Shown: positions 6,245 through 60,091, counted from the stretch's first letter. The stretch is 64,000 nucleotides of DNA from Thermoplasmata archaeon (GCA_021819135.1 JAKASE010000001.1:75375-139374); one strand, 5' to 3'. Made by a program: numbers and translations. Notes: a model not told the origin generated them from the sequence alone.

Positions 6245-6604
6245 CTAGGCCTCGGGCATCAGGGTGTGCTCGTTGCCGTCCGGGTCCCGGACCTGGGCGT
6301 AGGTCCCCCATGACTCGGTCGTCGGCTCGACGGAGAACTCGACCCCGCGGGACTTGAGCTCCTCGCAGGCCGCCGCGAAATCCCCGCCGGGGAGATGCAA
6401 CAGGATCCCGGAGTTGCCGGGCTCCATCCCCTGATTCGGTCCGGCTTCGTCAACCTTGCACAAGTGGAGTTTCCCCGGGCGGCCCTTTCGCCCGACGGTG
6501 ATCCAGTGGCCCTCGTGGTCGATCACGTCGAGCCCCAGCTTCTCGGTGTACCACTTCAAGGACCGTTCCGGATCCGATACCACGACCGCGACACTGGTGA
6601 ACAT
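6245..6604 (-). CDS. VOC/glyoxalase-bleomycin resistance family protein
   Basis: ~119 aa from ATG 6604; glyoxalase-like core (HLCKVDEAG...GILLHLPGGDFAAACEELKSRGVEF). Confidence 0.65.
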   Translation of the reverse strand: MFTSVAVVVSDPERSLKWYTEKLGLDVIDHEGHWITVGRKGRPGKLHLCKVDEAGPNQGMEPGNSGILLHLPGGDFAAACEELKSRGVEFSVEPTTESWGTYAQVRDPDGNEHTLMPEA

Positions 6605-23989: not shown

Positions 23990-24906
23990 CCCGAGCCCTC
24001 CGGGTGCGTCAGCCGACGCCAGGCGTCGACGCTGTTCGCCATCAGCTGGGCCACCGTGACGGGTCCGACCCCTCCCGGCACCGGGGTGAGCGACGCCGCC
24101 CAGCCCTCGAGCGACCCGGCGTCGGCGTCCCCCACGGCGATCGAGGCGCCCGGTCGCGTCGGATCCGGCACGCTCGAGATCCCGACGTCGACGATATGGA
24201 CCCCCTCGGGGACGGTGGCGCGGTTGAGGAGACCGGGCCGGCCCACGCAGGAGAAGATCGTACGGGCGCTCGCGAGGACCTTCGGGAGGTCCCGGCTCTT
24301 CGAGTGGGCCAGCGTGACGGTCGCGTGGATCCCTTCCGCCTTGCCGCCGAGCAGCAGCGCGAGCGGAAGGCCGACCGTCTCCGACCGGCCGAGGACGACG
24401 ACCGGTTCCCCCTCGAGCGGAAGGTGGTAGAACTGGGCGATCCGCACGGCCCCGCGGGCGACGGCGGGCACCTGCACGGGCCGCTGGGCGACCAGGCGGC
24501 CGAGGTTCTCCGGCCCGACCCCGTCGACATCCTTCTCGGGTCGGAGCGTTCCCACCGCCCGGTAGAAATCGAACGGCGGAGGCAGGGGATGTTCCAGGAG
24601 CACCGCGTGGACGGTGGGGTCACGGTCGAGCGCCCGCAGGCGCTCCTCGAGGTCCCCCGGTCCGGCCGAAGCGGCCAGCGCCTCGTCCCGGAACCGGACC
24701 CCGACCTCCGCGGCCGCCTTGGCCTGGCGCTTGAGGTAGAAGCGGAACGGGCTGTCGACGCCCCGGTGGACGCTGATGAGCGACGGGGGCGGAAGCCCGG
24801 GGACCGCGATGATCGCAGCCCGGCTCGCGGCGTTCAGGGCGTCGGCGATCGGCTTGCCGAGGAGACGGTCGGTCACGAGGGGATCCCGCCCGACCGAGCC
24901 GCGCAC
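23986..24906 (-). CDS. folD: bifunctional methylene-THF dehydrogenase/methenyl-THF cyclohydrolase
   Basis: 306 aa; FolD catalytic and NAD(P) Rossmann regions ([15 protein letters not shown]); GTG start. Confidence 0.85.
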
Positions 24907-25012
24907 GGTAGATAAGCGGGTCCCGCTTCGCGCGAAGAGGCGGCGGGACCTTTCCCCTGCCGTCCGCCCGGTGACGCCGGCGACGCAAGGTGAACTCCGG
25001 CCTCCCGAAGGG

Positions 25013-25020
25013 ATTTATAC
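25013..25020 (+). promoter_or_regulatory. TATA box ATTTATAC upstream of lon
   Basis: AT-rich element in GC-rich intergenic region between divergent folD and lon; in-frame GTG at 25040 is an alternative leaderless start. Confidence 0.4.
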
Positions 25021-25081
25021 CGAGGTCCGCTTCATTTACGTGGCGCAACGATCCCGGCGGCTCCGGGCGAGAAACGCCATC

Positions 25082-27103
25082 ATGACAGAAGGAGCGGTCC
25101 GACCCTCCGCGGGGTCCGAAGAGCCGGCGTCGCAGAGCGAGCTCGAACAGTGGACGAGCGCGCTTCCGTACACCTCGACCGCCCAGGTCGAGGTCCCTCC
25201 GCGCCTCCTGGACCAGGTGATCGGGCAGGACGAGGCGGTCGAGGTCGCCCGGAAGGCGGCGACGCAGAAGCGCCACATGATCCTGATCGGCGAGCCGGGC
25301 ACGGGCAAGAGCATGCTGGCCCGCGCGATGGTCGACTTCCTTCCGAAGGAGCAGCTCCAGGACATCCTCGCCTACCCGAACAACGAGGACCCGAACGAGC
25401 CCAAGATCCGCGTCGTTCCGTCGGGCAAGGGAAAGGAGATCGTCGCGGCCCAGAAGCTCGAGGCGGCCCAGAAGAAGGAGCAGCGGACGATCCTGTTCGT
25501 CGTCCTGGCGCTGGCCATCTTCGCCTTCACGCTCTACATCGTGCTCACGACGCACGACCTGACCGCGCTCCTCGTCGGCCTGCTGATCGTCTTCATCGTC
25601 TACGCGCTTGTCCGGTTCTCGGGCGGACGGAACGACTCGGGCACGGGCGTCGCGAAGCTGTTGGTCCCGCACACCCCCGACGACAAACCCCCGTTCATCG
25701 ACGCTACCGGGGCCCATGCCGGAGCGCTGCTCGGGGACGTCAAGCACGACCCGTTCCAGTCGGGCGGGCTCGAGACCCCTCCGCATGAGCGGGTGGAGGT
25801 CGGTGCGATCCACAAGGCGAACGGCGGGGTCCTGTTCATCGACGAGATCAACCTCCTCAAGATCGAGAGCCAGCACTCCCTGCTGACCGCGCTCCAGGAG
25901 CGGAAGTTCCCGATCGTCGGGCAGTCCGAGCGTTCGGCCGGCGCCATGGTGAAGACCGAACCGGTTCCCGCCGACTTCGTGCTCGTCGCCGCGGGCAACG
26001 TCGACAGCGTGCAGAACATGCACCCGGCGCTCCGCTCCCGGATCCGCGGCTACGGCTACGAGCTCTACGTGAAGACGACGATGCCCGACACCGTGGAGAA
26101 CCGGATGAAGATCGTTCGGTTCATCGCCCAGGAGGTCACGAAGGACAAGAAGATCCCCCACTTCGACACCGGGGCGATCGCGGAGGTCATCCGCGAGGCG
26201 CAGCGCCGCTCGGGCCGGTCGGGTCAGCTCACCCTGCGGCTCCGGGAGCTGGGCGGACTCGTCCGGGTCGCCGGGGACATCGCCCTTTCCGAGGGCCTCC
26301 CGATCGTCAAGGCCGACCAGGTCGTGAAGGCGAAACGCGCCAGCCGCTCGCTCGAGCAGCAGATCGCCGACCGCTACATCGAGCGCCGCAAGGAATACCG
26401 GATGTTCTCCACCGAAGGGGCGGCCGTCGGGGTCGTGAACGGTCTCGCCGCGATCAACGCCCAGACCGGCATGGCCGAGTTCTCCGGCATCGTGCTCCCG
26501 ATCGTCGCCGAGGTCACGCCGGCCCAGACACGGGACGGAGGCGTCGTGGTCGCGACGGGGAAGCTCGGGGAGATCGCTCGCGAGGCGGTCCAGAACGTGA
26601 GCGCCCTCATCAAGAAGTACACGGGGGAGGACATCTCCCGCTACGACATCCACATCCAGTTCGTGGGGACGTCGGACGGCGTCGAGGGCGACAGCGCCTC
26701 GGTGTCGATCGCCACGGCCGTCATCAGCGCCCTCGAGGGGGTCCCGGTGGACCAGTCGGTCGCAATGACCGGTTCGCTCTCCGTGCGTGGCCAGGTCCTC
26801 CCCGTCGGCGGCGTCACGGCGAAGGTCGAGGCCGCGGCCGACTCCGGCATCAAGCGGGTCCTCGTCCCCGAGGACAATCTGGACGACCTCGTCCTCGAAT
26901 CCCGGTACCGGGGCATGATCGAAGTGATCCCGGTGCGCACCCTGCGGGACGTCCTCAAGTACGCGCTCGTCGGCCAGGGTTCCCAGAAGGAGTCCCTCCT
27001 CGAGCGGCTCAGCGCGATGGTCCGCGCGACCAGTCGCACGTCCGAAGAGGTCCCGGCTACCGGCGCGGTGCCTCCGGCTCCCGCTCGGCCGGCCGGTTCG
27101 TGA
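25082..27103 (+). CDS. lon: archaeal membrane-bound Lon protease (LonB)
   Basis: AAA+ Walker A GEPGTGKS, inserted two-TM segment ([18 protein letters not shown]...), C-terminal Ser-Lys protease domain ([13 protein letters not shown]...K). Confidence 0.9.
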
Positions 27104-29891: not shown

Positions 29892-30563
29892 GTGCGCCCC
29901 CGAGGGGCCGCGGGTGCTCCGTGCCCGTCAATTCGCCTCGACCTTGGGTTCATCGTGCCCGTACGCGTCGGCGGAACCGGTTTCGACCGACCGAGGAGGA
30001 CCGGGTGCCAGGGGGCGTCGAGCACGACAGGCACAAGACGCCACTACCGAAGCAAGGTCGAGGTCCTGCGTGACCTCCTCGAGGCGTCCCGGGTGGACCA
30101 CGGTAAGACCCACATCATCGGTCGGGCCTTCCTCAACGAGGACCTCTTCGAGCGGTACGCTTCCTTGGCCCTCTCCGAGGGTCTCCTAGAGGCCGTCGAG
30201 GGGGGATACCGGGTCACTCCTTCCGGTATCACGTGGCTGGAGGCAGTCCGCCGCGTGCTCGAGAAGCGTACCGCGCTCGCTTCCGCGCTCAGTGAGCTGG
30301 CCCGGATCTCGGACCGTTCACCGGCCCCGAGGACGTGGGACGCCCCGCCGGTGGAGCGCAGCGCGTCAAGCCTCTCCGCCGAAGAACACCCGCCGGCGCT
30401 CGATTCGGTGATCGAGGAGCTCGGCCTCCCCGGCACCCGTTCCCCGCCCTCCCCTCGGGGCGAGGGCGCCGGCGGAGCGTCGGCATCCTCCCGGGTCCGA
30501 GTCGATCTCGCGCGAGGCGTGTCGCCCCGGCGCCGGCCGCCGAGGCGAAGGAGCCGTCCGTGA
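29892..30563 (+). CDS. HTH_45-type winged-helix protein with disordered C-terminal tail (start uncertain: ATG 29892 or GTG 29955)
   Basis: RHYRSKVEVLRDLLEASRVDHGKTHIIGRAFLNEDLFERYASLALSEGLLE matches archaeal HTH_45 (RSKIEIL.DIL...); translationally coupled (GTGA) to downstream membrane/peptidase gene. Confidence 0.55.
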   Translation: MRPRGAAGAPCPSIRLDLGFIVPVRVGGTGFDRPRRTGCQGASSTTGTRRHYRSKVEVLRDLLEASRVDHGKTHIIGRAFLNEDLFERYASLALSEGLLEAVEGGYRVTPSGITWLEAVRRVLEKRTALASALSELARISDRSPAPRTWDAPPVERSASSLSAEEHPPALDSVIEELGLPGTRSPPSPRGEGAGGASASSRVRVDLARGVSPRRRPPRRRSRP

Positions 30564-31894
30564 TCTCACCTACGGGAGTCCGCGGCGTACGTCCCTGGCT
30601 TCTCTTCGCTGCCGTGCTCGCGGTCGGGCAGTCGGTCTACTTCGCGACCCCCACGCTCACTCCCGAGGTCGCCCGAGCGGTCAGTCTCGCCGTCCCGCTC
30701 AGCGCGCTCGCGCTCTTCTTCCTGTTCGTCCGGTGGGACGGGAGTACGCCGCGCGACCACGGGCTCTTCCTGCCCCCCGACCCGGCCCGGGCCCTCGGCG
30801 TCGCCGCGCTGCTGGTCGGGGTCTACCTCATCGCCGTCCTCGAACCCGGGTTCGGCTTCGGGTTCCTGGCGGGGGCCGAGGACACCGTGGACAGCGTCCT
30901 CTACTGGATCGCGTACGCTCCGCTCACCGCCCTGGCCGGCGAGGCGGTCTTCCGAGGGTATCTGCTCGATCGCTGGCTCAAGCCGGGCACCCTACCGGCG
31001 TCGCTCGGGGTCTCCTCGGTGCTCTTCGCGGTCGCCGGGACGAACGTGGTCGTCCTCGAAGGGCTCGAGCCGGTCTCGTTGGGACGACTGCTGCTCAGCC
31101 GCGTTGCCCCGCTCGTCGTCCTCGGCGTCGTGCTCGGCTTCTACTACCTCTGCGCCGCGAGGAACCTGCTCGGGCCGTTCGTCCTCCGTACCGGGATCCT
31201 CCTCTTCGTGGGACTCTCGCCGCTCCTCGCCGGCTCGCCCGGCTGGCAGCTCTCCCTGCTCCTCGAGCTGTTCGCCTACGGTCTCGTCCTCGCGCTCCTG
31301 CTCGTCCTGTACCGACCGTCGCGCTTCCTCGCCCGCGCCTATCTCGGGGAGAGGTTCGGTCCCCGCCGGGGACGGTTCCGGGAGATCCGGGAGCGTCGGA
31401 GAGAGCGTCGGTCCCTGGTCGTCGCGAGCGTGGCCGTCGCGCTCGTGCTGTCGGGGACGTTCGTCACCCTCGTGACGACCCTCGGGACCAATCCCCCGTT
31501 CCTCGCCATCTCGAGCGATAGCATGAGCCCGACGATCCACCGGGGGGACATCGTTCTCGTCCGGCAGGCCGACGCCGCGTCGATCGGCGTCGGAACGGTG
31601 ATCGCCTACTCCTCCTCCTGCATGCCCTCCCCGGTAGTACATCGTGTCGTGGCCGAGAGCCCGGGAACCGGCGGCCCAGTGTACACGACGAGGGGGGATG
31701 CGAACGGGGTGAACGATCCGTGTCCCGTGCCGATCGGCGCCGTCATCGGGCAGATCGTTCTGGTCGTTCCCCTCCTCGGTTTCTTCGCCCTCTCGCCGGC
31801 GTTGTCGGTCGGAACGGTGGTGATCGCGGTCGTCGCCGTCGCCCTGCTCCGGCCCTCGTCGTCGTCGTTCTCCCATCGGAGGTGGCATCGATGA
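30560..31894 (+). CDS. fusion protein: polytopic membrane domain (degenerate CPBP/Abi-like EAVFRG motif) + C-terminal type I signal peptidase (SipW/Sec11, S26B type)
   Basis: ~8 TM helices then TM anchor and SDSMSPTIHRGD (Ser box), VVHRVV (His box), TRGDANGVND (GDNN box). Confidence 0.75.
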   Translation: MISPTGVRGVRPWLLFAAVLAVGQSVYFATPTLTPEVARAVSLAVPLSALALFFLFVRWDGSTPRDHGLFLPPDPARALGVAALLVGVYLIAVLEPGFGFGFLAGAEDTVDSVLYWIAYAPLTALAGEAVFRGYLLDRWLKPGTLPASLGVSSVLFAVAGTNVVVLEGLEPVSLGRLLLSRVAPLVVLGVVLGFYYLCAARNLLGPFVLRTGILLFVGLSPLLAGSPGWQLSLLLELFAYGLVLALLLVLYRPSRFLARAYLGERFGPRRGRFREIRERRRERRSLVVASVAVALVLSGTFVTLVTTLGTNPPFLAISSDSMSPTIHRGDIVLVRQADAASIGVGTVIAYSSSCMPSPVVHRVVAESPGTGGPVYTTRGDANGVNDPCPVPIGAVIGQIVLVVPLLGFFALSPALSVGTVVIAVVAVALLRPSSSSFSHRRWHR

Positions 31895-33189
31895 AAGGTC
31901 CGATCGCAGGGGTGGCGGTGCTGATCGTGCTGGCCGCGTGCGCCGGGTACTGGATCGCGTACGACGAGTCCCACGCCTCCCAGACCCCGGTCTCCACCAC
32001 GTTCCAGTACGAGGAGACGGGGGTCTACTCGTACGTGGCCGAGCTGAAGAACAACTCGCTCTACGGACCGGTCAACCTGACGAACCCCAACGCGACCCTC
32101 TTCTACGGGATCACCTCGTGGCTTCACGTCACGTACGTCTACCACATCACGCTCGACCGGGTCGTGAACACGACCGTGAACGCCGAGGTGCCGGTGGTCC
32201 TGGAGAGCTCGGTCTGGTCGAAACCGCTCGGGGCACAGAACGCGACGTTCGCGGCGACCGGCGCGAGAGGGGCGACCCTCGCGGTCACCTACGACCTCAA
32301 CGTGACGTCGGTCGTCTCCTTGGTCTCGTCGATCGTGAACGACACCGGCTACCAGCCGGATGCCTTCGCCGTCCGGTTCAGCCCGACGGTGACGACCTCC
32401 GTGGACACGGGGGGCACGGTGGCTCCGGTAGAGTTCGCCTCCACGCTCGCGTTGAACTTCACCTCCCAGCAGATCGTGCCGAGCGCGCTCCTTTCCTCCG
32501 CTCGGGGGGCCCACACGATCCTTGGAAGCCCGACCGGCGGAGTGCCGGGGATCTGGGGGAACGCCTACCTTCCGATCGGGATCCTGGTCGCGAGCCTCGG
32601 GGCCGCCGGCTATCTCGGGCTCCGTCCGTCCGGCGGATCCGATCGCCACCCCCGATCCCGTCTCGAAGCCGACCTGCGGGCCTACCGGGACGAGATCGCG
32701 GAAACCGATACTCCCCCGCCGCGCCAGCCGTCGGTCGAGGTCCGGTCGTGGGCCGACCTGGTGAAAGTGGCCGACACCCTCGGGCGGCCGATCCTACGGC
32801 TGGCCGACGCGACCGGCGGGGCACGGGAGGGATCGGTCTTCTACGTCCTCGCGGATTCCGTGGCCTACGTCTACCGGATCGAGGAAGCGGACCGGCCCGG
32901 GGAACCGACCGGACTCCGGGGCCCATCTCGCGACGCCCCCGGTCCGGCGGGATCCGTCGACATCCGGGCCGCCGTCGGCGAAGGGGACCGATCGCTCGGA
33001 CGGTTCGTTCGGGAAGTGAGCGACGTCAGCGAACGCCTGCGGACGAGCGGGGTCGGGGGCGAGCCTCGGAGAGAGGTGGACGCGCTCCTCCTTCGCGCGA
33101 TCGCTCGGGCCCGGCAAGGGCATCTGGACAGCGCGGAGCGGCTCCTTCGCGAAGCGGCCGAGCGAGCGGGTCGGACCGACCTCCGATAG
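31891..33189 (+). CDS. membrane-anchored N-glycosylated protein with SipW-cognate-like signal peptide (TapA-like accessory/fibre subunit candidate)
   Basis: ATG overlaps upstream stop (ATGA); N-terminal GVAVLIVLAACAGYWIAYDE resembles GGTWAAFND-type SipW-cognate signal; >10 sequons; second TM near residue 250 and cytoplasmic tail. Confidence 0.6.
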   Translation: MKGPIAGVAVLIVLAACAGYWIAYDESHASQTPVSTTFQYEETGVYSYVAELKNNSLYGPVNLTNPNATLFYGITSWLHVTYVYHITLDRVVNTTVNAEVPVVLESSVWSKPLGAQNATFAATGARGATLAVTYDLNVTSVVSLVSSIVNDTGYQPDAFAVRFSPTVTTSVDTGGTVAPVEFASTLALNFTSQQIVPSALLSSARGAHTILGSPTGGVPGIWGNAYLPIGILVASLGAAGYLGLRPSGGSDRHPRSRLEADLRAYRDEIAETDTPPPRQPSVEVRSWADLVKVADTLGRPILRLADATGGAREGSVFYVLADSVAYVYRIEEADRPGEPTGLRGPSRDAPGPAGSVDIRAAVGEGDRSLGRFVREVSDVSERLRTSGVGGEPRREVDALLLRAIARARQGHLDSAERLLREAAERAGRTDLR

Positions 33190-33336
33190 CTCCGGGGCGG
33201 AGCCCGGGGCCCCGACGCGGTGCCCGGATCATAGGATTCCCGGGTTTGCTCTGGAGCAGTGGGCTCGGACCTTCGCAGTCGGCTTGCCATCGCCCGCCCA
33301 TGCCCGGTACGAGGTGAAAGGCCTCAGGCTGAGAAA

Positions 33337-33876
33337 ATGTCGGGCAAGTGGGTTGTGGGACTGGTCGGAGTGTTCGTCGTGCTGGGCGTCGCGGGGGTCG
33401 GATTCGCGGCCTTCACGGACCCGTTGACCATCAATGGGAGCGCCACGGCAGGTACCTTGGACGTGCATATCGTGGACTACAGCAACAACGTCGCCTACCC
33501 GGGACACACGTACCTCACGCATCTCAGCGGTGACAAGAAGTCGATCGACCTCTATGCGTGGAACCTGGTTCCGGGCCAGTACCCGAACGAGCAGGTGAAG
33601 CTGAAGAACGTCGGCACGCTCCCGGCGCACATCGCCGTCACGCTCGTCAACAGCGACGGGAACCTCGTGGCCATGGGCGGCGCCGATGCCTTCGATGTCC
33701 AGACCACCTCGGGGCTCACCGCGGTGGGAGGTGTCTGGAGCGTCACACACTGGGTGACCCTCTACCCGGGCCACTCGATCTGGGACACGATCTACGTCGG
33801 GATCCCGGCGGGATCGACGTCCGCACCGGCGAGCACGACCTTCACGATCGTGTACACCGCGACCGCGGGCACCTGA
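33337..33876 (+). CDS. TasA/camelysin-like (peptidase M73 fold) secreted protein with SipW-cognate class signal peptide
   Basis: Signal VVGLVGVFVVLGVAGVGFAAFTD (G-x-G-F-A-A-F-T-D); GTLDVHIV...NLVPGQYPNEQVKLKNVGTLPAHIAVTLV parallels TasA GTLDL...NLKPGD...F.NNGSL. Confidence 0.7.
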   Translation: MSGKWVVGLVGVFVVLGVAGVGFAAFTDPLTINGSATAGTLDVHIVDYSNNVAYPGHTYLTHLSGDKKSIDLYAWNLVPGQYPNEQVKLKNVGTLPAHIAVTLVNSDGNLVAMGGADAFDVQTTSGLTAVGGVWSVTHWVTLYPGHSIWDTIYVGIPAGSTSAPASTTFTIVYTATAGT

Positions 33877-34208: not shown

Positions 34209-35018
34209 CTAGGCCGGCAGCCCGCCGTCGATCGGTACCCCGGTCCCGAACATCCCGATCGCCGATCCGAGGGCGACGAGCCAGGACAGCGGCGGGAGAT
34301 GGAGGCTACCGGGCCAGACCTCGGGGAACCGCTTCCGCTTGTCGCCCGAGCGTCCGACCGGTGCCCGCGCCGCCCCCGCATCATGGGACAATGGCCGGTG
34401 AGCAGAGCGCGAGAGGGACCCGGCAGCGAATGTCGGTGCCGACGCGTAGGCGGAGCCCGACGGAATGCTCGGGATCGGCGCCCGTGACGCGGTAGGAGGA
34501 AGACGGACCCTTGCGCCCTCGACCAAGGCGCCCGCGGGTTCTGGCGGGGCCTTCAAAGCGACGACCCACCGATGCCACCGCCCTTCCGCGGACCGGCCTT
34601 CGGCATCCCGGACGGAGAGCGCGGTCAGATCCTCCACGGCGGTGGCGAGCTCCGTTCGACGCTGGATCACGAGGTTCGCCGCGTTGAGCCAATCCTTGCC
34701 CCGGTCCGTAGCGCGGAACCCTATCGCGGTCCGCCGGAGCAGGCCCTGTTGCAGGGCCACTCCGGAGTAGCGAGAGAACGAGTCTTCGTTGAGGTTGGCC
34801 CGCCCGATGAGGCGGCCTTTCCGCATCTCCGACACCGCGGCGGCCACGAGGTCTCGGAGAACCTCGACCTTCGTTCGATACCGCCGACTACCGGTGCTCG
34901 TGGTCGTCCCCCCTCGGCCCGGGGCAAGCGTTCTCCCGGCGCCGGTGAAGGGCGCACGCGCTCCGATAAACGCATAGTGGCACGGAATTGACCTACCGGC
35001 CCGGTTCGCGCGCCTCAC
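34209..35018 (-). CDS. HTH_45-type winged-helix protein paralogue with C-terminal extension ending in a hydrophobic segment (start uncertain: GTG 35018 or ATG 35210)
   Basis: RRYRTKVEVLRDLVAAAVSEMRKGRLIGRANLNEDSFSRYSGVALQQGLL paralogous to 29892-30563 including the conserved TT.TG.RR.YR pre-helix segment. Confidence 0.5.
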   Translation of the reverse strand: MRRANRAGRSIPCHYAFIGARAPFTGAGRTLAPGRGGTTTSTGSRRYRTKVEVLRDLVAAAVSEMRKGRLIGRANLNEDSFSRYSGVALQQGLLRRTAIGFRATDRGKDWLNAANLVIQRRTELATAVEDLTALSVRDAEGRSAEGRWHRWVVALKAPPEPAGALVEGARVRLPPTASRAPIPSIPSGSAYASAPTFAAGSLSRSAHRPLSHDAGAARAPVGRSGDKRKRFPEVWPGSLHLPPLSWLVALGSAIGMFGTGVPIDGGLPA

Positions 35019-35382: not shown

Positions 35383-35455
35383 GCCACTGTAGCTCAGTCG
35401 GCAGAGCGGCTGATTCGTAATCAGCAGGTCGGGGGTTCAAGTCCCTCCAGTGGCT
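35383..35455 (+). tRNA. tRNA-Thr (CGU)
   Basis: 73-nt cloverleaf: acceptor GCCACTG/CAGTGGC, D-arm GCTCAGTCGGCAGAGC, anticodon loop TTCGTAA, T-arm GGGGGTTCAAGTCCCTC; TATA-like CTTATGA ~30 nt upstream. Confidence 0.85.
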
Positions 35456-35499: not shown

Positions 35500-36742
35500 A
35501 TGGGTCAATCCCCGGTCGAACCGGCCGCCGACAATCGCCGGTTCGACATCCACGACACGCACGCCCAGATCGCCCACGCGGAGGCCCGACTGCGCTCAGG
35601 GGACTCGGGGGTCCCACCCGAGACCGCTCAGGCGATCCTCGAGTTCGTTGAGGCTCGTAGAGAAGCCGTCTCCGCGCAGAGGACGGTGACCTACCTTCGC
35701 GAATCTCCAGGCGGCCTCGAAGAGACTCGGCCGGGACCTTCTGGAACCGAACCGGGAGACGCCCGCGAAGTTCCTGCGGGCCTACCGCGAGAAGGAGGTC
35801 TGGACCAAGCTCACTGTGCGCTCCGTCCTCTACTCATTCTGGAAGTGGCGGTTCAATCGTGATGGGAAGGACTTCCCCCGCTGGCTCAAGATACCGCTCT
35901 CTGCGCGAGGGGCGAGCCGGAAAGACCACAACGATGTGTTGACCCCGGAGGAGGTCGCACGCATCGCCGATCACACAGTCAACCTCCGCGACAAGGCTCT
36001 GATCTGGGTCCTCTACGAGAGCGGAGGACGGATCGGCGAGGTGCTGACCCTGCGAATCGGCGACGTGGAGAGAACCGAATACGGGGCGGTCCGCCTCTAC
36101 TTTCCGACGGGAAAGACCGGTCGACGAACTGTCCCCCTCTTTGAAGCCGCGGTGCCGAACCTTCTCCTCTGGCTCAAGAACCATCCCCGAGCCAGCGACA
36201 GGGACGCTCCCCTCTGGGTCCAGATCGAGCAGGCGAACCCGAGCGGAAGTGGAATCGGCTACCGCTACGTCGTCAAGTTGCTCGAGCGAGCGGCGGCCCG
36301 CGCCGGCGTGGCGAAGCCGGTGAATCCGCACAGCTTCCGGCATTCCCGAGCCACGGCTGTGGCACAGAATCCCCAAGTCTCGACCTCGGTGCTCGAGAAG
36401 TTCTTCGGTTGGCAGCCGGGTTCGTCGATGGCGAAGACGTACGTTCACCTGTCGGGCAAGGAAGTCGAGGACGCCCTTGCCCGAGCCCACGGGATCGACC
36501 TCGGCAGATCGGAAACTCCGATGTCGAAGCTCCCGCGTGTGTGCGCCCGCTGCTCTACCTCAAACGACCCTGACGGGAAGTTCTGCGTCCAGTGCGGTGG
36601 TCCGCTCAGTCTTGAAGGCGTGGAGGAGCGGGCGAAGTGGAAGGCCGAGGAAGATGCGCTTGCCAACCTTCTTGACGACCCGAAGGTCCGCTCATTCATC
36701 GCGCGCCGGCTGAGGGTACATCTCGGCCGTGCAGAGGCGTAA
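35500..36742 (+). CDS. tyrosine recombinase/integrase, apparent +1 frameshift near 35690-35700 (N-terminal domain in frame of 35500, catalytic domain in frame of 35816)
   Basis: Catalytic boxes GGRIGEV (Arg), HSFRHSRAT (His-x-x-Arg), KTYVHL (Tyr); C-terminal zinc ribbon CARC...CVQCG; frame-2 reading open from 35690 encodes genuine-looking FLRAYREKEVWTKL segment lacking any start codon. Confidence 0.75.
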
Positions 36743-57917: not shown

Positions 57918-59600
57918 GAGTCTCCGACGGGGGAGTGATCCGCGTCTCCTCAGGCGCGCGGGAGGGTACCGCCCGGAGTTGCTCGTTGCTGGTAGCGACG
58001 AGCGAGGAGCCTCCCCTCGGATCGCAATCTGCTTCTTCTCCGACGGGGGAGGTACCGCCCTGAGGAACGAACAGCCGGCAGCGCCGGTTCACGCGACTCT
58101 GGACGTAAGATGATGTGCCGTTACGAAGCCAGACACGTTCCCGTGCGCGCGGAGCTCGCGTCCCAATGGCGGTGGCGTGAGCGTGTACGCCGATTCCTTC
58201 GCGCTCATGCTCGCGCCGTTCACGGACCCCGAACCCTAGCTGTGTCGCGCACGTGACGACTGGGGGAACCACGGTTACCGGACACCCGGACACTGGGTCT
58301 CTTCCGGTCGAGCGACCTCTCCTTGGGTGCGCCTTCGGGGCCGGGATCTCACCCTGCACCATGCACCCTTACACCGGGTCCCTTTCCCCCGAGCGAGCTC
58401 TCCGCGCTTGCGCGTTCGAGCCGGCACATCTTTCGGGATGCTGTCGGATCGATAGACGCTACCCGTTACTTGCTGCTGGCGCGCGCGTACCACACACACG
58501 CGAGGGAGGAACGGGTAGCTCGTCCGGACGAGCGGGACGAGAAGGGCGAGACGAGTCATTCCCTCGCGAGCACTTGCTCACACCGAGCACCGCTTGAGGT
58601 GTCGGCTCAGGTGGTCGAGGGGGAGAACGCTCCCTCGACCGTGGGGCACGGACACGGTCTGAACCCGACGGGGACCCTTGTCAGTTGACGGTTGAGGGTT
58701 CCGGCGCGCACGAACCACGCGCGGGTGAGGGGTACACGGTGGGCACTCGTCCGGGCGAGCCGGTGGGGACGCATGAGCGTCCCTTTGGAGGGGAGCGGGC
58801 CGATCGCGAATCTTGCCCCTTGCCCTGGGTCGGCTTCCTCCGAGCGAGCTCTCCACGCGACGCGCGTTCCGAGTTGACGTCCGCCGGACGCCAGGAGGAG
58901 GCGCGACGTTCGCAGTCACCGCAAGCGCGGGGAGGAGGGAGCGAACCATGCCCCCGCAAGCCCCTCGGAGCCCATGGATCGATGGTCAAAGTTCAACGTC
59001 GAGCGCGCGAGCACTACGCGCACGGGAGAAGAAGACCCGGGCGAGCCGGACGAGGACGAGTCACTCGGCCGGACGGGCAGCGAGTCTGATGCTGGCGTCC
59101 ACAAGGTCACAAGGGGGTCTCCATCCCCCGAGCGAGCTCTCCGCGCGACGCGAGTCCGGAGCGCCCTCGTCGGCCTCTTGGTTCGATGGGTGCCGCACGT
59201 CGGGAGGCGGCCCAATACGAGCGAGTACCCCGACTACGCGAGGAAGGCTCCTCCGAAAGACGTGAGAACATCCCTTGAGGACGAGTGGTTCCCAATTCCC
59301 ACATCCCGAGCCCCGGCGCGCGAGCACCACGCGCGGGGAAGGAGAAGGCGGATGGCACCGGGTCGGACGGGTTACTCGTCCGGACGAGTCGGCCGCTCGG
59401 ACGGGCTCACCGATCCCGCGCATCGTTTGACGTGGCGGGAGAGGTTGTCCCGGCGGACCAGGGTCCTGCATCCCCGGGGGCAGAGGATGCGATCCGAGCC
59501 GGACCAGTTCCCCAAGTGCTTGACGTTTGACGCTTCCGGAGCGTGCGAACTACGCGCGGGTGAGGGAGTAGGGGGGTTGACCGTTGACGGTTCCGGTATT
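57918..59600. repeat. GC-rich non-coding repeat cluster: 3 copies of CCGAGCGAGCTCTCC(G/A)CGCG..CGCG.GTTCGAG, 2 copies of ~50-nt TTGACG(G/T)TTGA(G/C)G(G/C)TTCCGG..GCG(C/T)GCGAAC(C/T)ACGCGCGGGTGAGG, several ACGCGCGGG/ACGCGCACGGG variants, and perfect 14-16-nt palindromes CTCGTCCGGACGAG
   Basis: Motif A at 58386-58420, 58837-58873, 59125-59160 (+ inverted partial 58143-58160); motif B at 58685-58733 and 59520-59570; palindromes 58518-58533 and 59384-59399; direct repeats TCTCCGACGGGGGAG at 57921-57935 and 58037-58051. Confidence 0.6.
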
Positions 59601-60091
59601 CGTTGCGACTTAGAGACCGACGTGCCGGAACCATCCTCGAAGTGGTGGCCGGTTCCCGGTTCCCCGGGCGGTACCTCCCCGCGCGCGGGGGACGAGACCG
59701 GGGTGGTATCGCTCCCGGACGAGCCGGACGAGTGGGACGAGCGGGACGAGCGCGGTTCGACGGGTGGCACGTTCGGCTCCTCGTGCGGATAGAGTTCGAG
59801 TGGGCCGGACCTTGGACTTGGACCCTCCGGCTCCGTGAACGCCTCCCCGCCCGGGACTTCGAGATAGACCGGACCGACGGACGACACGTGCCCCGGACTC
59901 TCTCGGTGGGTCAGGATGACCTCGGACCACAGAGGACCCCCGGTTTCCCAACCGGGATCGCGACGATGATCCTGGCCACAAAGGGCACATCGGGAGGCGG
60001 GAGCTCGGCCGATCACCTGGTCTCGGCAGTTGGAACAGACGAGTGGATCGCTGCCGCGGACACGCGGTCCGTCGTGGGTACAGGCCGTCAC
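59372..60091 (-). CDS. possible zinc-finger protein: N-terminal zinc ribbon (CSNC...CALCG), S/P-rich low-complexity middle, C-terminal C2HC finger (CPRGC...H...C)
   Basis: 239-aa ORF with ATG; mixed codon usage; 3' half overlaps repeat region so may be partly spurious. Confidence 0.3.
   Translation of the reverse strand: MTACTHDGPRVRGSDPLVCSNCRDQVIGRAPASRCALCGQDHRRDPGWETGGPLWSEVILTHRESPGHVSSVGPVYLEVPGGEAFTEPEGPSPRSGPLELYPHEEPNVPPVEPRSSRSSHSSGSSGSDTTPVSSPARGEVPPGEPGTGHHFEDGSGTSVSKSQRIPEPSTVNPPTPSPARSSHAPEASNVKHLGNWSGSDRILCPRGCRTLVRRDNLSRHVKRCAGSVSPSERPTRPDE

Follow-up and report, generated by a model that had tools for sequence, protein, structure and literature searches.

The window analysed here, a stretch of 64,000 nucleotides from a Thermoplasmata archaeon (GCA_021819135.1, JAKASE010000001.1:75375-139374), has a G+C content of about 70%, and its closest relatives are all Thermoplasmata metagenome-assembled genomes (MAGs); the contig was also deposited as GCA_027377435.1, DAIFDS010000033.1. 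Between 29.9 and 33.9 kb the window contains four genes on the same (plus) strand, which encode, in this order, a putative winged-helix regulator, a signal peptidase of 444 amino acids (aa; 30560-31894), a DUF5305 membrane protein of 432 aa (31891-33189) and a TasA-like protein of 179 aa (33337-33876). The first three genes run into one another, with 4 bp shared by the regulator and peptidase genes and another 4 bp shared by the peptidase and DUF5305 genes, and a spacer of 147 bp separates the DUF5305 gene from the TasA-like gene. A first-pass annotation had proposed that the DUF5305 protein and the TasA-like protein both carry signal peptides of the SipW-cognate class and that both are substrates of the adjacent peptidase, like TapA and TasA in Bacillus. 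Our analysis suggests a different arrangement, which we consider likely: a minimal TasA/AbpX-type fibre locus of Thermoplasmata, in which the DUF5305 protein is the partner of the peptidase and not its substrate.

Signal peptide of the TasA-like subunit

The TasA-like gene starts with an ATG at 33337 and encodes a protein with the N-terminus MSGKWVVGLVGVFVVLGVAGVGFAAFTDPLTING, which is assigned as the precursor of a TasA-superfamily (AbpX-like) fibre subunit on the basis of profile matches to AbpX and an AlphaFold2 (AF2) model. Among solved structures, the family profile, built from 11 relatives, retrieved two AbpX chains (9sj2_C, E=1.5e-4; 9rhp_A, E=6.5e-4) and reached the TasA structures 5of1 and 8aur only faintly (E~1.6-1.9). 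Beyond the signal peptide, the AF2 model consists of beta structure only, with a predicted local distance difference test score (pLDDT) of 79.8. Ten homologues with 36-59% identity were found, all of which adjoin the same cassette of genes wherever their context is known.

The first 24 residues (33337-33408, plus strand) form a predicted signal peptide of the SipW-cognate type, as indicated by the TIGR04088 profile, a conserved c-region and the alignment with AbpX. TIGR04088 scored 17.5 bits on the full-length protein (E=0.0033) and 19.6 bits on its N-terminal 51 aa, compared with a cut-off of 19; the match spans positions 2-34 of the 34 in the profile, and seven of the 11 family members matched at E<=0.1. 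The membership of this signal class that the first-pass annotation had assumed for both proteins is therefore borderline for the TasA-like protein, while the DUF5305 protein falls below noise. The cut is predicted between GFA24 and A25FTD, that is, between 33408 and 33409, which places small residues on its upstream side (Gly at -3 and Ala at -1). Several residues on both sides of this site, together with others in the helix and further downstream, are invariant in the family alignment (W5, G8, V12, G20, V21, A25, F26, T27, N33 and G34).

The string GVGFAAFTD (residues 20-28, 33394-33420) had been read as the end of the signal helix and confined to positions up to 33400. The string is present, but it ends 20 nt further on, at 33420, and it comprises two parts, the c-region GVGFA, with which the signal peptide ends, and AFTD, the first four residues of the predicted mature protein. 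In the AF2 model the signal helix stops at residue 21, before the cut, and residues 22-42 are unstructured. The alignment with AbpX places residue 9 of the mature AbpX chain opposite N33, and ungapped extrapolation from there puts AbpX residue 1 on A25, W2 on F26 and E4 on D28. The predicted mature N-terminus, A-F-T-D, and the cut that generates it agree with the published rule of an aromatic residue at mature position 2 and an acidic one at position 4. Asp occupies position 4 in six of the 11 relatives, only within the small clade to which the protein from the window belongs. Mature TasA begins with AFND. Combined with the above analysis, AFTD is predicted to be the start of the mature donor strand and not the end of the signal helix.

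A cassette in the order peptidase, DUF5305 and one to four TasA-like genes was found at four metagenome loci, which were reached via the TasA-like protein, and at 22 genome loci, which were reached via the DUF5305 protein and belong to 21 Thermoplasmata MAGs and one Bathyarchaeia MAG. The 52 distinct substrate-type N-termini from these loci share a near-invariant G-x-G-[FY]-[AS], followed either by A-F-[TS] or by C-G-G-G-G-C. The latter continuation marks a third paralogue class in the sister loci, in which the same signal end precedes a Cys/Gly-rich mature N-terminus (GVGFA / CGGGGC); its members lie in stop-to-stop segments that start at 6408 in locus L008, 8681 in L010, 2427 in L011, 8711 in L015, 5210 in L017, 8842 in L020, 3942 in L021 and 2672 in L028. 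These Cys/Gly-rich proteins may be tip or anchor components of the fibre. Because the same c-region stands ahead of unrelated mature N-termini, what is conserved is part of the signal peptide, and this would be expected if a dedicated peptidase recognises it. In the sister loci, the TasA-like paralogues and the Cys/Gly-rich proteins are predicted to be the actual additional substrates. Neither the Cys/Gly-rich class nor any extra TasA-like paralogue was found in the window, where the TasA-like protein is the sole one with this signal and no other open reading frame (ORF) carries it. A peptidase that matches TIGR02228 lies 1.4 kb upstream of the TasA-like gene in the same orientation, and this linkage, the TIGR04088 match close to its cut-off and the conserved c-region make the TasA-like protein very probably a substrate of the cassette peptidase. 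To this extent the first-pass proposal stands.

Signal peptidase and its CPBP-like module

The peptidase has about ten transmembrane (TM) helices and consists of two parts. The C-terminal part (31409-31894, plus strand) is a SEC11/SipW-type signal peptidase I domain of the Ser-His-Asp kind, with a TM helix of its own and one or two C-terminal TM helices. Residues ~284-444 matched TIGR02228, the archaeal signal peptidase I profile, with 86.6 bits against a cut-off of 51.85, and the best solved relatives of the domain were human SEC11C and SEC11A (E=2e-8). The segments SDSMSPT, VVHRV and GDANGVND align to SEC11A/C and contain the Ser, His and Asp of the enzymes of the endoplasmic reticulum (ER) type, and the corresponding S(D/G)SM, VHRV and GDAN..D are kept across 25 orthologues. 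The SipW equivalog NF046067 gave a score of 34.1 bits compared with a cut-off of 190, which sets the peptidase apart from the orthologues of Bacillus SipW.

The N-terminal part (residues 1-270; 30560-31369, plus strand) is an Rce1/CPBP-like module with about eight TM helices according to hydropathy. It matched PF02517 (Rce1-like/CPBP) with 32.8-34.5 bits against a cut-off of 22.4, as did ten of the 13 orthologous N-terminal modules. Catalysis in the CPBP family depends on the motifs EExxxR, FxxxH and HxxxN/D. When the sequences were aligned by eye, motif 1 read A-G-E-A-V-F-R-G here and Q-V-G-L-F-F-G in many orthologues, and the positions of motifs 2 and 3 were held by G/S/T/Q and R/L/A, with no His. 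No invariant Glu or His was present in the alignment of the 13 modules. Because of this lack and of the degenerate canonical motif positions, the module is probably non-catalytic and could serve as a pseudo-protease scaffold. A search of the PDB with its profile gave no matches. In the Bathyarchaeia MAG (L030, 2180-6200) the CPBP-like module and the signal peptidase domain are encoded by separate genes on either side of the DUF5305 gene, which suggests that the Thermoplasmata enzyme arose via the fusion of two linked genes. A dedicated signal peptidase I (SPase I) with ~10 TM helices has been described for AbpX loci (bioRxiv 10.64898/2026.01.04.697558), and the words Rce1, CAAX, CPBP and PF02517 are absent from that preprint.

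The DUF5305 protein and its N-terminal helix

The DUF5305 gene starts with an ATG at 31891, and its product has the N-terminus MKGPIAGVAVLIVLAACAGYWIAYDESH. It matched PF17231 (DUF5305) with 35.4 bits against a cut-off of 29. An exhaustive HMMER search yielded 292 homologues at E<=1e-3, whereas word-indexed searches returned the query alone and, with a profile of 61 sequences, just nine proteins. The AF2 model made with 61 homologues (pLDDT 85.6) and hydropathy describe a protein with an N-terminal TM helix (TM1), which is an unbroken helix over aa 3-27, a beta-sandwich ectodomain (aa 34-211), a second TM helix (TM2, aa 226-243) and a C-terminal cytoplasmic alpha/beta domain with a helical tail. 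The ectodomain has eight N-x-S/T sequons, so that the label "glycoprotein" given to the protein in the first pass is plausible. Five homologues that were candidates for fusions of signal peptidase and DUF5305 (P0093, P0123, P0137, P0160 and P0147) instead proved to be tandem ectodomain duplications, with two or three copies before the TM2/cytoplasmic module, so that the extracellular sandwich is a duplicable unit.

The gene adjoins a signal peptidase gene in all 26 related loci. In the window the stop codon of the peptidase gene and the start codon of the DUF5305 gene overlap as ATGA within TGGCATCGATGAAAGGT, with GGAGGTG located 8 nt upstream, and the 4-bp overlap also occurs in L003, L005, L007 and L008. 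This translational coupling suggests the stoichiometric co-production of the two proteins. DUF5305/TafG has been treated in the literature as a peptidase-associated "SPase I accessory", and both the constant position after the peptidase and the overlap fit that reading.

The nonapeptide AGYWIAYDE (residues 18-26, 31942-31968, plus strand) lies at the outer end of TM1, and the model helix runs straight through it. The first-pass annotation had assigned this string, like GVGFAAFTD, to the pattern G-x-[WF]-x-A-[FY]-x-[DE]. GYWIAYDE fits exactly, but GVGFAAFTD does not, since its Gly residues stand one and three positions before the Phe, and the two strings share no more than the core [WF]-x-A-[FY]-x-[DE]. 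The core occurs three times in the 127,996 residues of the six-frame translation of the window, the third time in an unrelated minus-strand frame. Naive chance would not be expected to put two core matches at the ends of the N-terminal helices of two adjacent gene products, with the qualification that the pattern was defined post hoc. Among 128 DUF5305 representatives with an N-terminal TM helix, the query is the only one with the strict or the core motif, and the nearest orthologues have AGYLGYVGT, AGYWVAATD, AGYWVAETD and again AGYWVAATD at this position. Only A-G-Y is a feature of the family: across the 61 homologues, A, S or G is found at position 18 in 58, G or A at 19 in 47 and Y at 20 in 54, whereas W21, A23, Y/F24 and D/E26 are kept in only 13, 14, 12 and 7, respectively. 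The TM1 signature of the family is [TAS]15-[VAI]16-[WFV]17-[ASG]18-[GA]19-Y20.

TIGR04088 gave no match at E<=10 on the DUF5305 protein, either at full length or on its N-terminal 51 aa, no match on the N-termini of 10 orthologues and none at E<=1 among the 61 family members. A log-odds matrix of the substrate c-region (positions -8 to +4), built from the 52 cassette substrates, separated the two groups: true substrates in leave-one-out scoring had a median of +27.9 bits, while 137 DUF5305 N-termini had a median of -14.0 and a maximum of 1.8 bits. The query itself scored -14.4 bits, which is the level of shuffled sequences (median -15.3, 95th percentile -4.6). An alternative register, in which [FW]-A-[AG]-[YF] of DUF5305 is laid on [FY]-A-A-F of the substrates, was rejected because of the same maximum of 1.8 compared with the substrate median of 27.9. 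Type I signal peptidases require small residues at -3 and -1. If the register of the TasA-like protein were applied to the DUF5305 protein, the cut would fall at Y-W-I22 / A23YDE, with Tyr at -3 and Ile at -1, in breach of this rule. An identical 16-nt stretch, TACTGGATCGCGTACG, which encodes YWIAY in both places, is found at 30902-30917 in the peptidase gene and at 31948-31963 in the DUF5305 gene. The identity ends there and the peptide is not kept in the peptidase orthologues, so that a duplication was rejected, and the shared stretch is probably due to chance and codon bias.

Four other readings of this helix were weighed. According to the one that survives best, TM1 is an ordinary Sec signal peptide that is cut by the cassette peptidase or a housekeeping peptidase, leaving a type I protein held by TM2, on which alone the topology would still work. 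TM1 does contain a small-x-small site, ACA18 / G19YW here and VWA/AYY or AFA/GYW in relatives, within the conserved columns described above, and this clade has a short basic N-terminal region (MK). However, the site is buried ~6 residues inside a hydrophobic span of 20 residues instead of at the outer edge of the span, it is preceded by no Gly or Pro that would break the helix, the modelled helix passes through it unbroken, and Y20, which follows it, is better conserved than the residues before it, which fits a helix-packing face better. Distant relatives carry basic N-terminal tails of 20-57 aa or extra upstream TM helices (P0129, P0085), which are typical of signal anchors, and SignalP-5 found no signal peptide in TafG, a characterised DUF5305 homologue (PMC11821415). 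SPase-DUF5305 fusions, which place TM1 internally, have been reported in the literature; among our sequences, the fragment P0100 has a weak peptidase C-terminus before TM1 (9.5 bits, E=0.0037 among 168 sequences), and BLASTP gives this fusion no support. Cleavage of TM1 as an ordinary signal peptide is therefore unlikely.

More doubtful still is a broader proposal, in which the DUF5305 protein is processed by the co-translated peptidase, or is its pseudo-substrate, via [TAS]-[VAI]-[WFV]-[ASG]/[GA]-Y, a signature that lies three residues upstream of the first-pass register, and in which the CPBP-like module might be an intramembrane receptor for long signal helices. If true, the locus would encode a prokaryotic signal peptidase machine of several parts that has substrate selection built in. 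A narrower version, argued from position and linkage, has TM1 dock with its outer end, or act there as a pseudo-substrate, in or beside the signal-peptide groove of the peptidase, so that the loose likeness to the substrate (aromatic-x-Ala-aromatic) would be functional mimicry and not a cleavage site: [WFV]-[ASG]-[GA]-Y is found where TM1 ends in the outer leaflet, at the level at which the SPase active site would be, and the peptidase and DUF5305 genes are strictly 1:1 linked and translationally coupled. The TM1 end is, however, statistically unlike the substrate c-region, and we hold this version to be highly improbable. The first-pass proposal itself, with cuts at YWI/AYDE and GFA/AFTD and the DUF5305 protein as a TapA-like second substrate, has in its favour the rare core pattern in both products and the proximity of both genes to the peptidase gene, but it is scarcely tenable in view of the profile, matrix, residue and orthologue results given above, the lack in DUF5305 of a G-x-G c-region and of a downstream T-V-N-G-T-A-T-A-G strand, and the second TM helix and cytoplasmic domain that DUF5305 keeps, unlike the secreted TapA. 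The end of the DUF5305 helix, a TM helix end with aromatic and acidic residues, resembles the TasA motif by a coincidence that is confined to this one protein.

We thus return to the fibre locus with DUF5305 as the partner of the peptidase. From what is observed here, namely which domains are present, how the order of the genes is conserved, how the motifs are distributed and what the hidden Markov model searches returned, we infer the following course of events. Sec would insert the subunit precursor via its long, Gly-rich signal peptide; the dedicated peptidase would recognise the c-region G-x-G-[FY]-[AS], and its SEC11-type domain, which is intact, would cut after Ala24. The freed AFTDPLTING strand could then enter the next subunit, and donor-strand complementation of this kind would build extracellular fibres. 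The N-terminal helix of the DUF5305 protein would most likely be retained as a membrane anchor, and the protein would most likely act next to the peptidase, either as a partner without catalysis of its own or as a platform for assembly. Cleavage of a subunit by the peptidase of its own cluster has experimental precedents in TafD/TafA and SipW/TasA, and the deletion of the cluster peptidase gene tafD blocks the processing of TafA (PMC11821415, PMC12337348).

Several results weigh against this reading. As for the subunit, its full-length TIGR04088 score is just under the cut-off (17.5 compared with 19), and Pfam PF12389 gave 15.5 bits, below its cut-off of 22.5. A Foldseek search of the PDB with the model, signal helix included, gave no match at E<=0.001; the best template-modelling score in that search, 0.46, was to the TasA fibre 8aur_A (E=0.016). 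The mature protein contains 6.5% D+E and has an isoelectric point (pI) of 5.17, far less acidic than the AbpX homologues, which are strongly acidic (~15% D/E, pI ~4), a property linked to Ca-dependent assembly. As for the DUF5305 protein, structure searches found just generic immunoglobulin (Ig)/LEA-like sandwiches and helical bundles, and no SPC22/23. Its putative accessory role is argued from gene linkage and from fusions in the literature, and [VAI]-x-[ASG] / [GA]-Y in TM1 formally obeys the -3/-1 rule, at a site different from that of the first pass. In Haloferax, TafA was still secreted when tafA-D were present and tafG was missing, while fimbriae required the full tafA-G (PMC11821415), which indicates that DUF5305 may serve assembly rather than cleavage.

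Setting of the locus and comparison with known systems

Two putative regulators of the HTH_45-like winged-helix kind bracket the locus. The upstream regulator (29892-30563, plus strand), the stop codon of which overlaps the peptidase start, has its true start between 29892 and 30093; it was annotated as 223 aa (with PF14947) or 156 aa in the source assemblies, and PF14947 (HTH_45) scored 22.5 bits, under the cut-off of 25.5. An equivalent gene lies 5′ of the peptidase gene in L002 and L008. The second regulator (34209-34900, minus strand) is convergent with the operon and scored 18.0 bits with PF14947, again below the cut-off. Its start was called at 34847, and the true start is probably upstream, since the ORF extends to 35210. 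The two regulators are paralogues (46% identity over 71 aa, E=1e-18), and since the HTH_45 match begins at model position 19-21, both seem to have been annotated with too few residues in the source assemblies.

Just upstream of the locus, 24776-27103 encodes an archaeal LonB-type protease, followed by a nicotinamide-nucleotide adenylyltransferase-like gene and a pyridoxal phosphate-dependent enzyme of Cys/Met metabolism; this is an ordinary housekeeping context, and the neighbourhood of the protease is syntenic in L001 and L002. On the downstream side come a tRNA-Thr(CGT) gene (35383-35455), an ORF that resembles tyrosine recombinases and has a zinc ribbon at its C-terminus (35816-36742) and, beyond it, ~20 kb of lower G+C content (58-65%, compared with ~70%). 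The region from 35383 to ~56000 probably represents an integrated element; the 3′ end of the tRNA-Thr gene was sought as a direct repeat that would bound this putative element, and no such repeat was found. Further downstream, at 58376-59766, there is a cluster of imperfect direct repeats in families of 47 nt and 31 nt with 62-85% identity, within which short tandem units of the GGACGAGCGGGACGAG type lie near 59717-59765.

The closest counterparts of the locus are the AbpX-type loci of archaea and bacteria, described with AbpX of Pyrodictium abyssi (bioRxiv 10.64898/2026.01.04.697558). AbpX is the closest solved relative of the subunit, and those loci likewise contain a dedicated SPase I with about ten TM helices, a cluster transcription factor and an "SPase I accessory" of the DUF5305 family, in which a beta-sandwich ectodomain and an alpha/beta domain on the cytoplasmic side are combined with two TM helices. 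Nevertheless, the subunit here is less acidic (6.5% D+E and pI 5.2, compared with ~15% and ~4), and the window has no minor subunit or tip protein, whereas its sister loci hold two to four paralogues. The lineage, Thermoplasmata, is also different (the word "Thermoplasmat" is absent from the main text of that preprint), and the extra TM helices of the peptidase are here identified as Rce1/CPBP-like.

The tapA-sipW-tasA operon of Bacillus subtilis likewise has a dedicated signal peptidase of the ER type (Ser-His) beside a TasA-superfamily subunit. Bacillus TasA has a signal peptide of the TIGR04088 class, which the subunit here matches at about the cut-off, a mature N-terminus of the form A-F-x-D and donor-strand assembly, as is proposed here. 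In contrast, the locus has no TapA homologue, and the place of the second gene is taken by the two-TM DUF5305 protein, which fails the signal-class test; the peptidase differs from SipW in its 8-TM CPBP-like extension, and the direct sequence similarity of the subunit to TasA is confined to the faint matches given above.

In the haloarchaeal Tat-fimbriae (tafi) system (tafA-G; PMC11821415, PMC12337348), the cluster peptidase TafD has a counterpart of the DUF5305 kind, TafG, and a regulator is present, as here, and the pilins assemble by donor strands, as proposed for this subunit. The tafi pilins, however, have Tat signals and are DUF1102/TafE-like, whereas the locus combines a Sec-type signal with an AbpX-like subunit. 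With four TM helices and an Ig-like domain at its C-terminus, TafD also differs from the peptidase here, which has the N-terminal CPBP-like module. A more distant comparison can be made with the eukaryotic signal peptidase complex, since the catalytic domain is most similar to SEC11A/C and the co-encoded DUF5305 protein, with its N-terminal anchor and beta-sandwich, recalls SPC22/23, an analogy drawn in the AbpX preprint (bioRxiv 10.64898/2026.01.04.697558). DUF5305 differs from SPC22/23 in its second TM helix and cytoplasmic domain.

TasA-like fibres with a signal peptidase of their own are emerging as a common route of bacteria and archaea to the biofilm matrix, and with this locus the AbpX-type cassette now reaches uncultured Thermoplasmata, in a minimal version that has a single subunit and lacks tip and minor pilins. 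To these systems the present analysis adds a consensus for the substrate signal, G-x-G-[FY]-[AS] / [AC], the placing of AFxD in the mature donor strand, the separation of the substrates from their DUF5305 partner, and the degenerate Rce1/CPBP-like identity of the extra TM helices of the peptidase. These additions are incremental and refine a system that was published in 2022-2026; they do not amount to a new kind of system.

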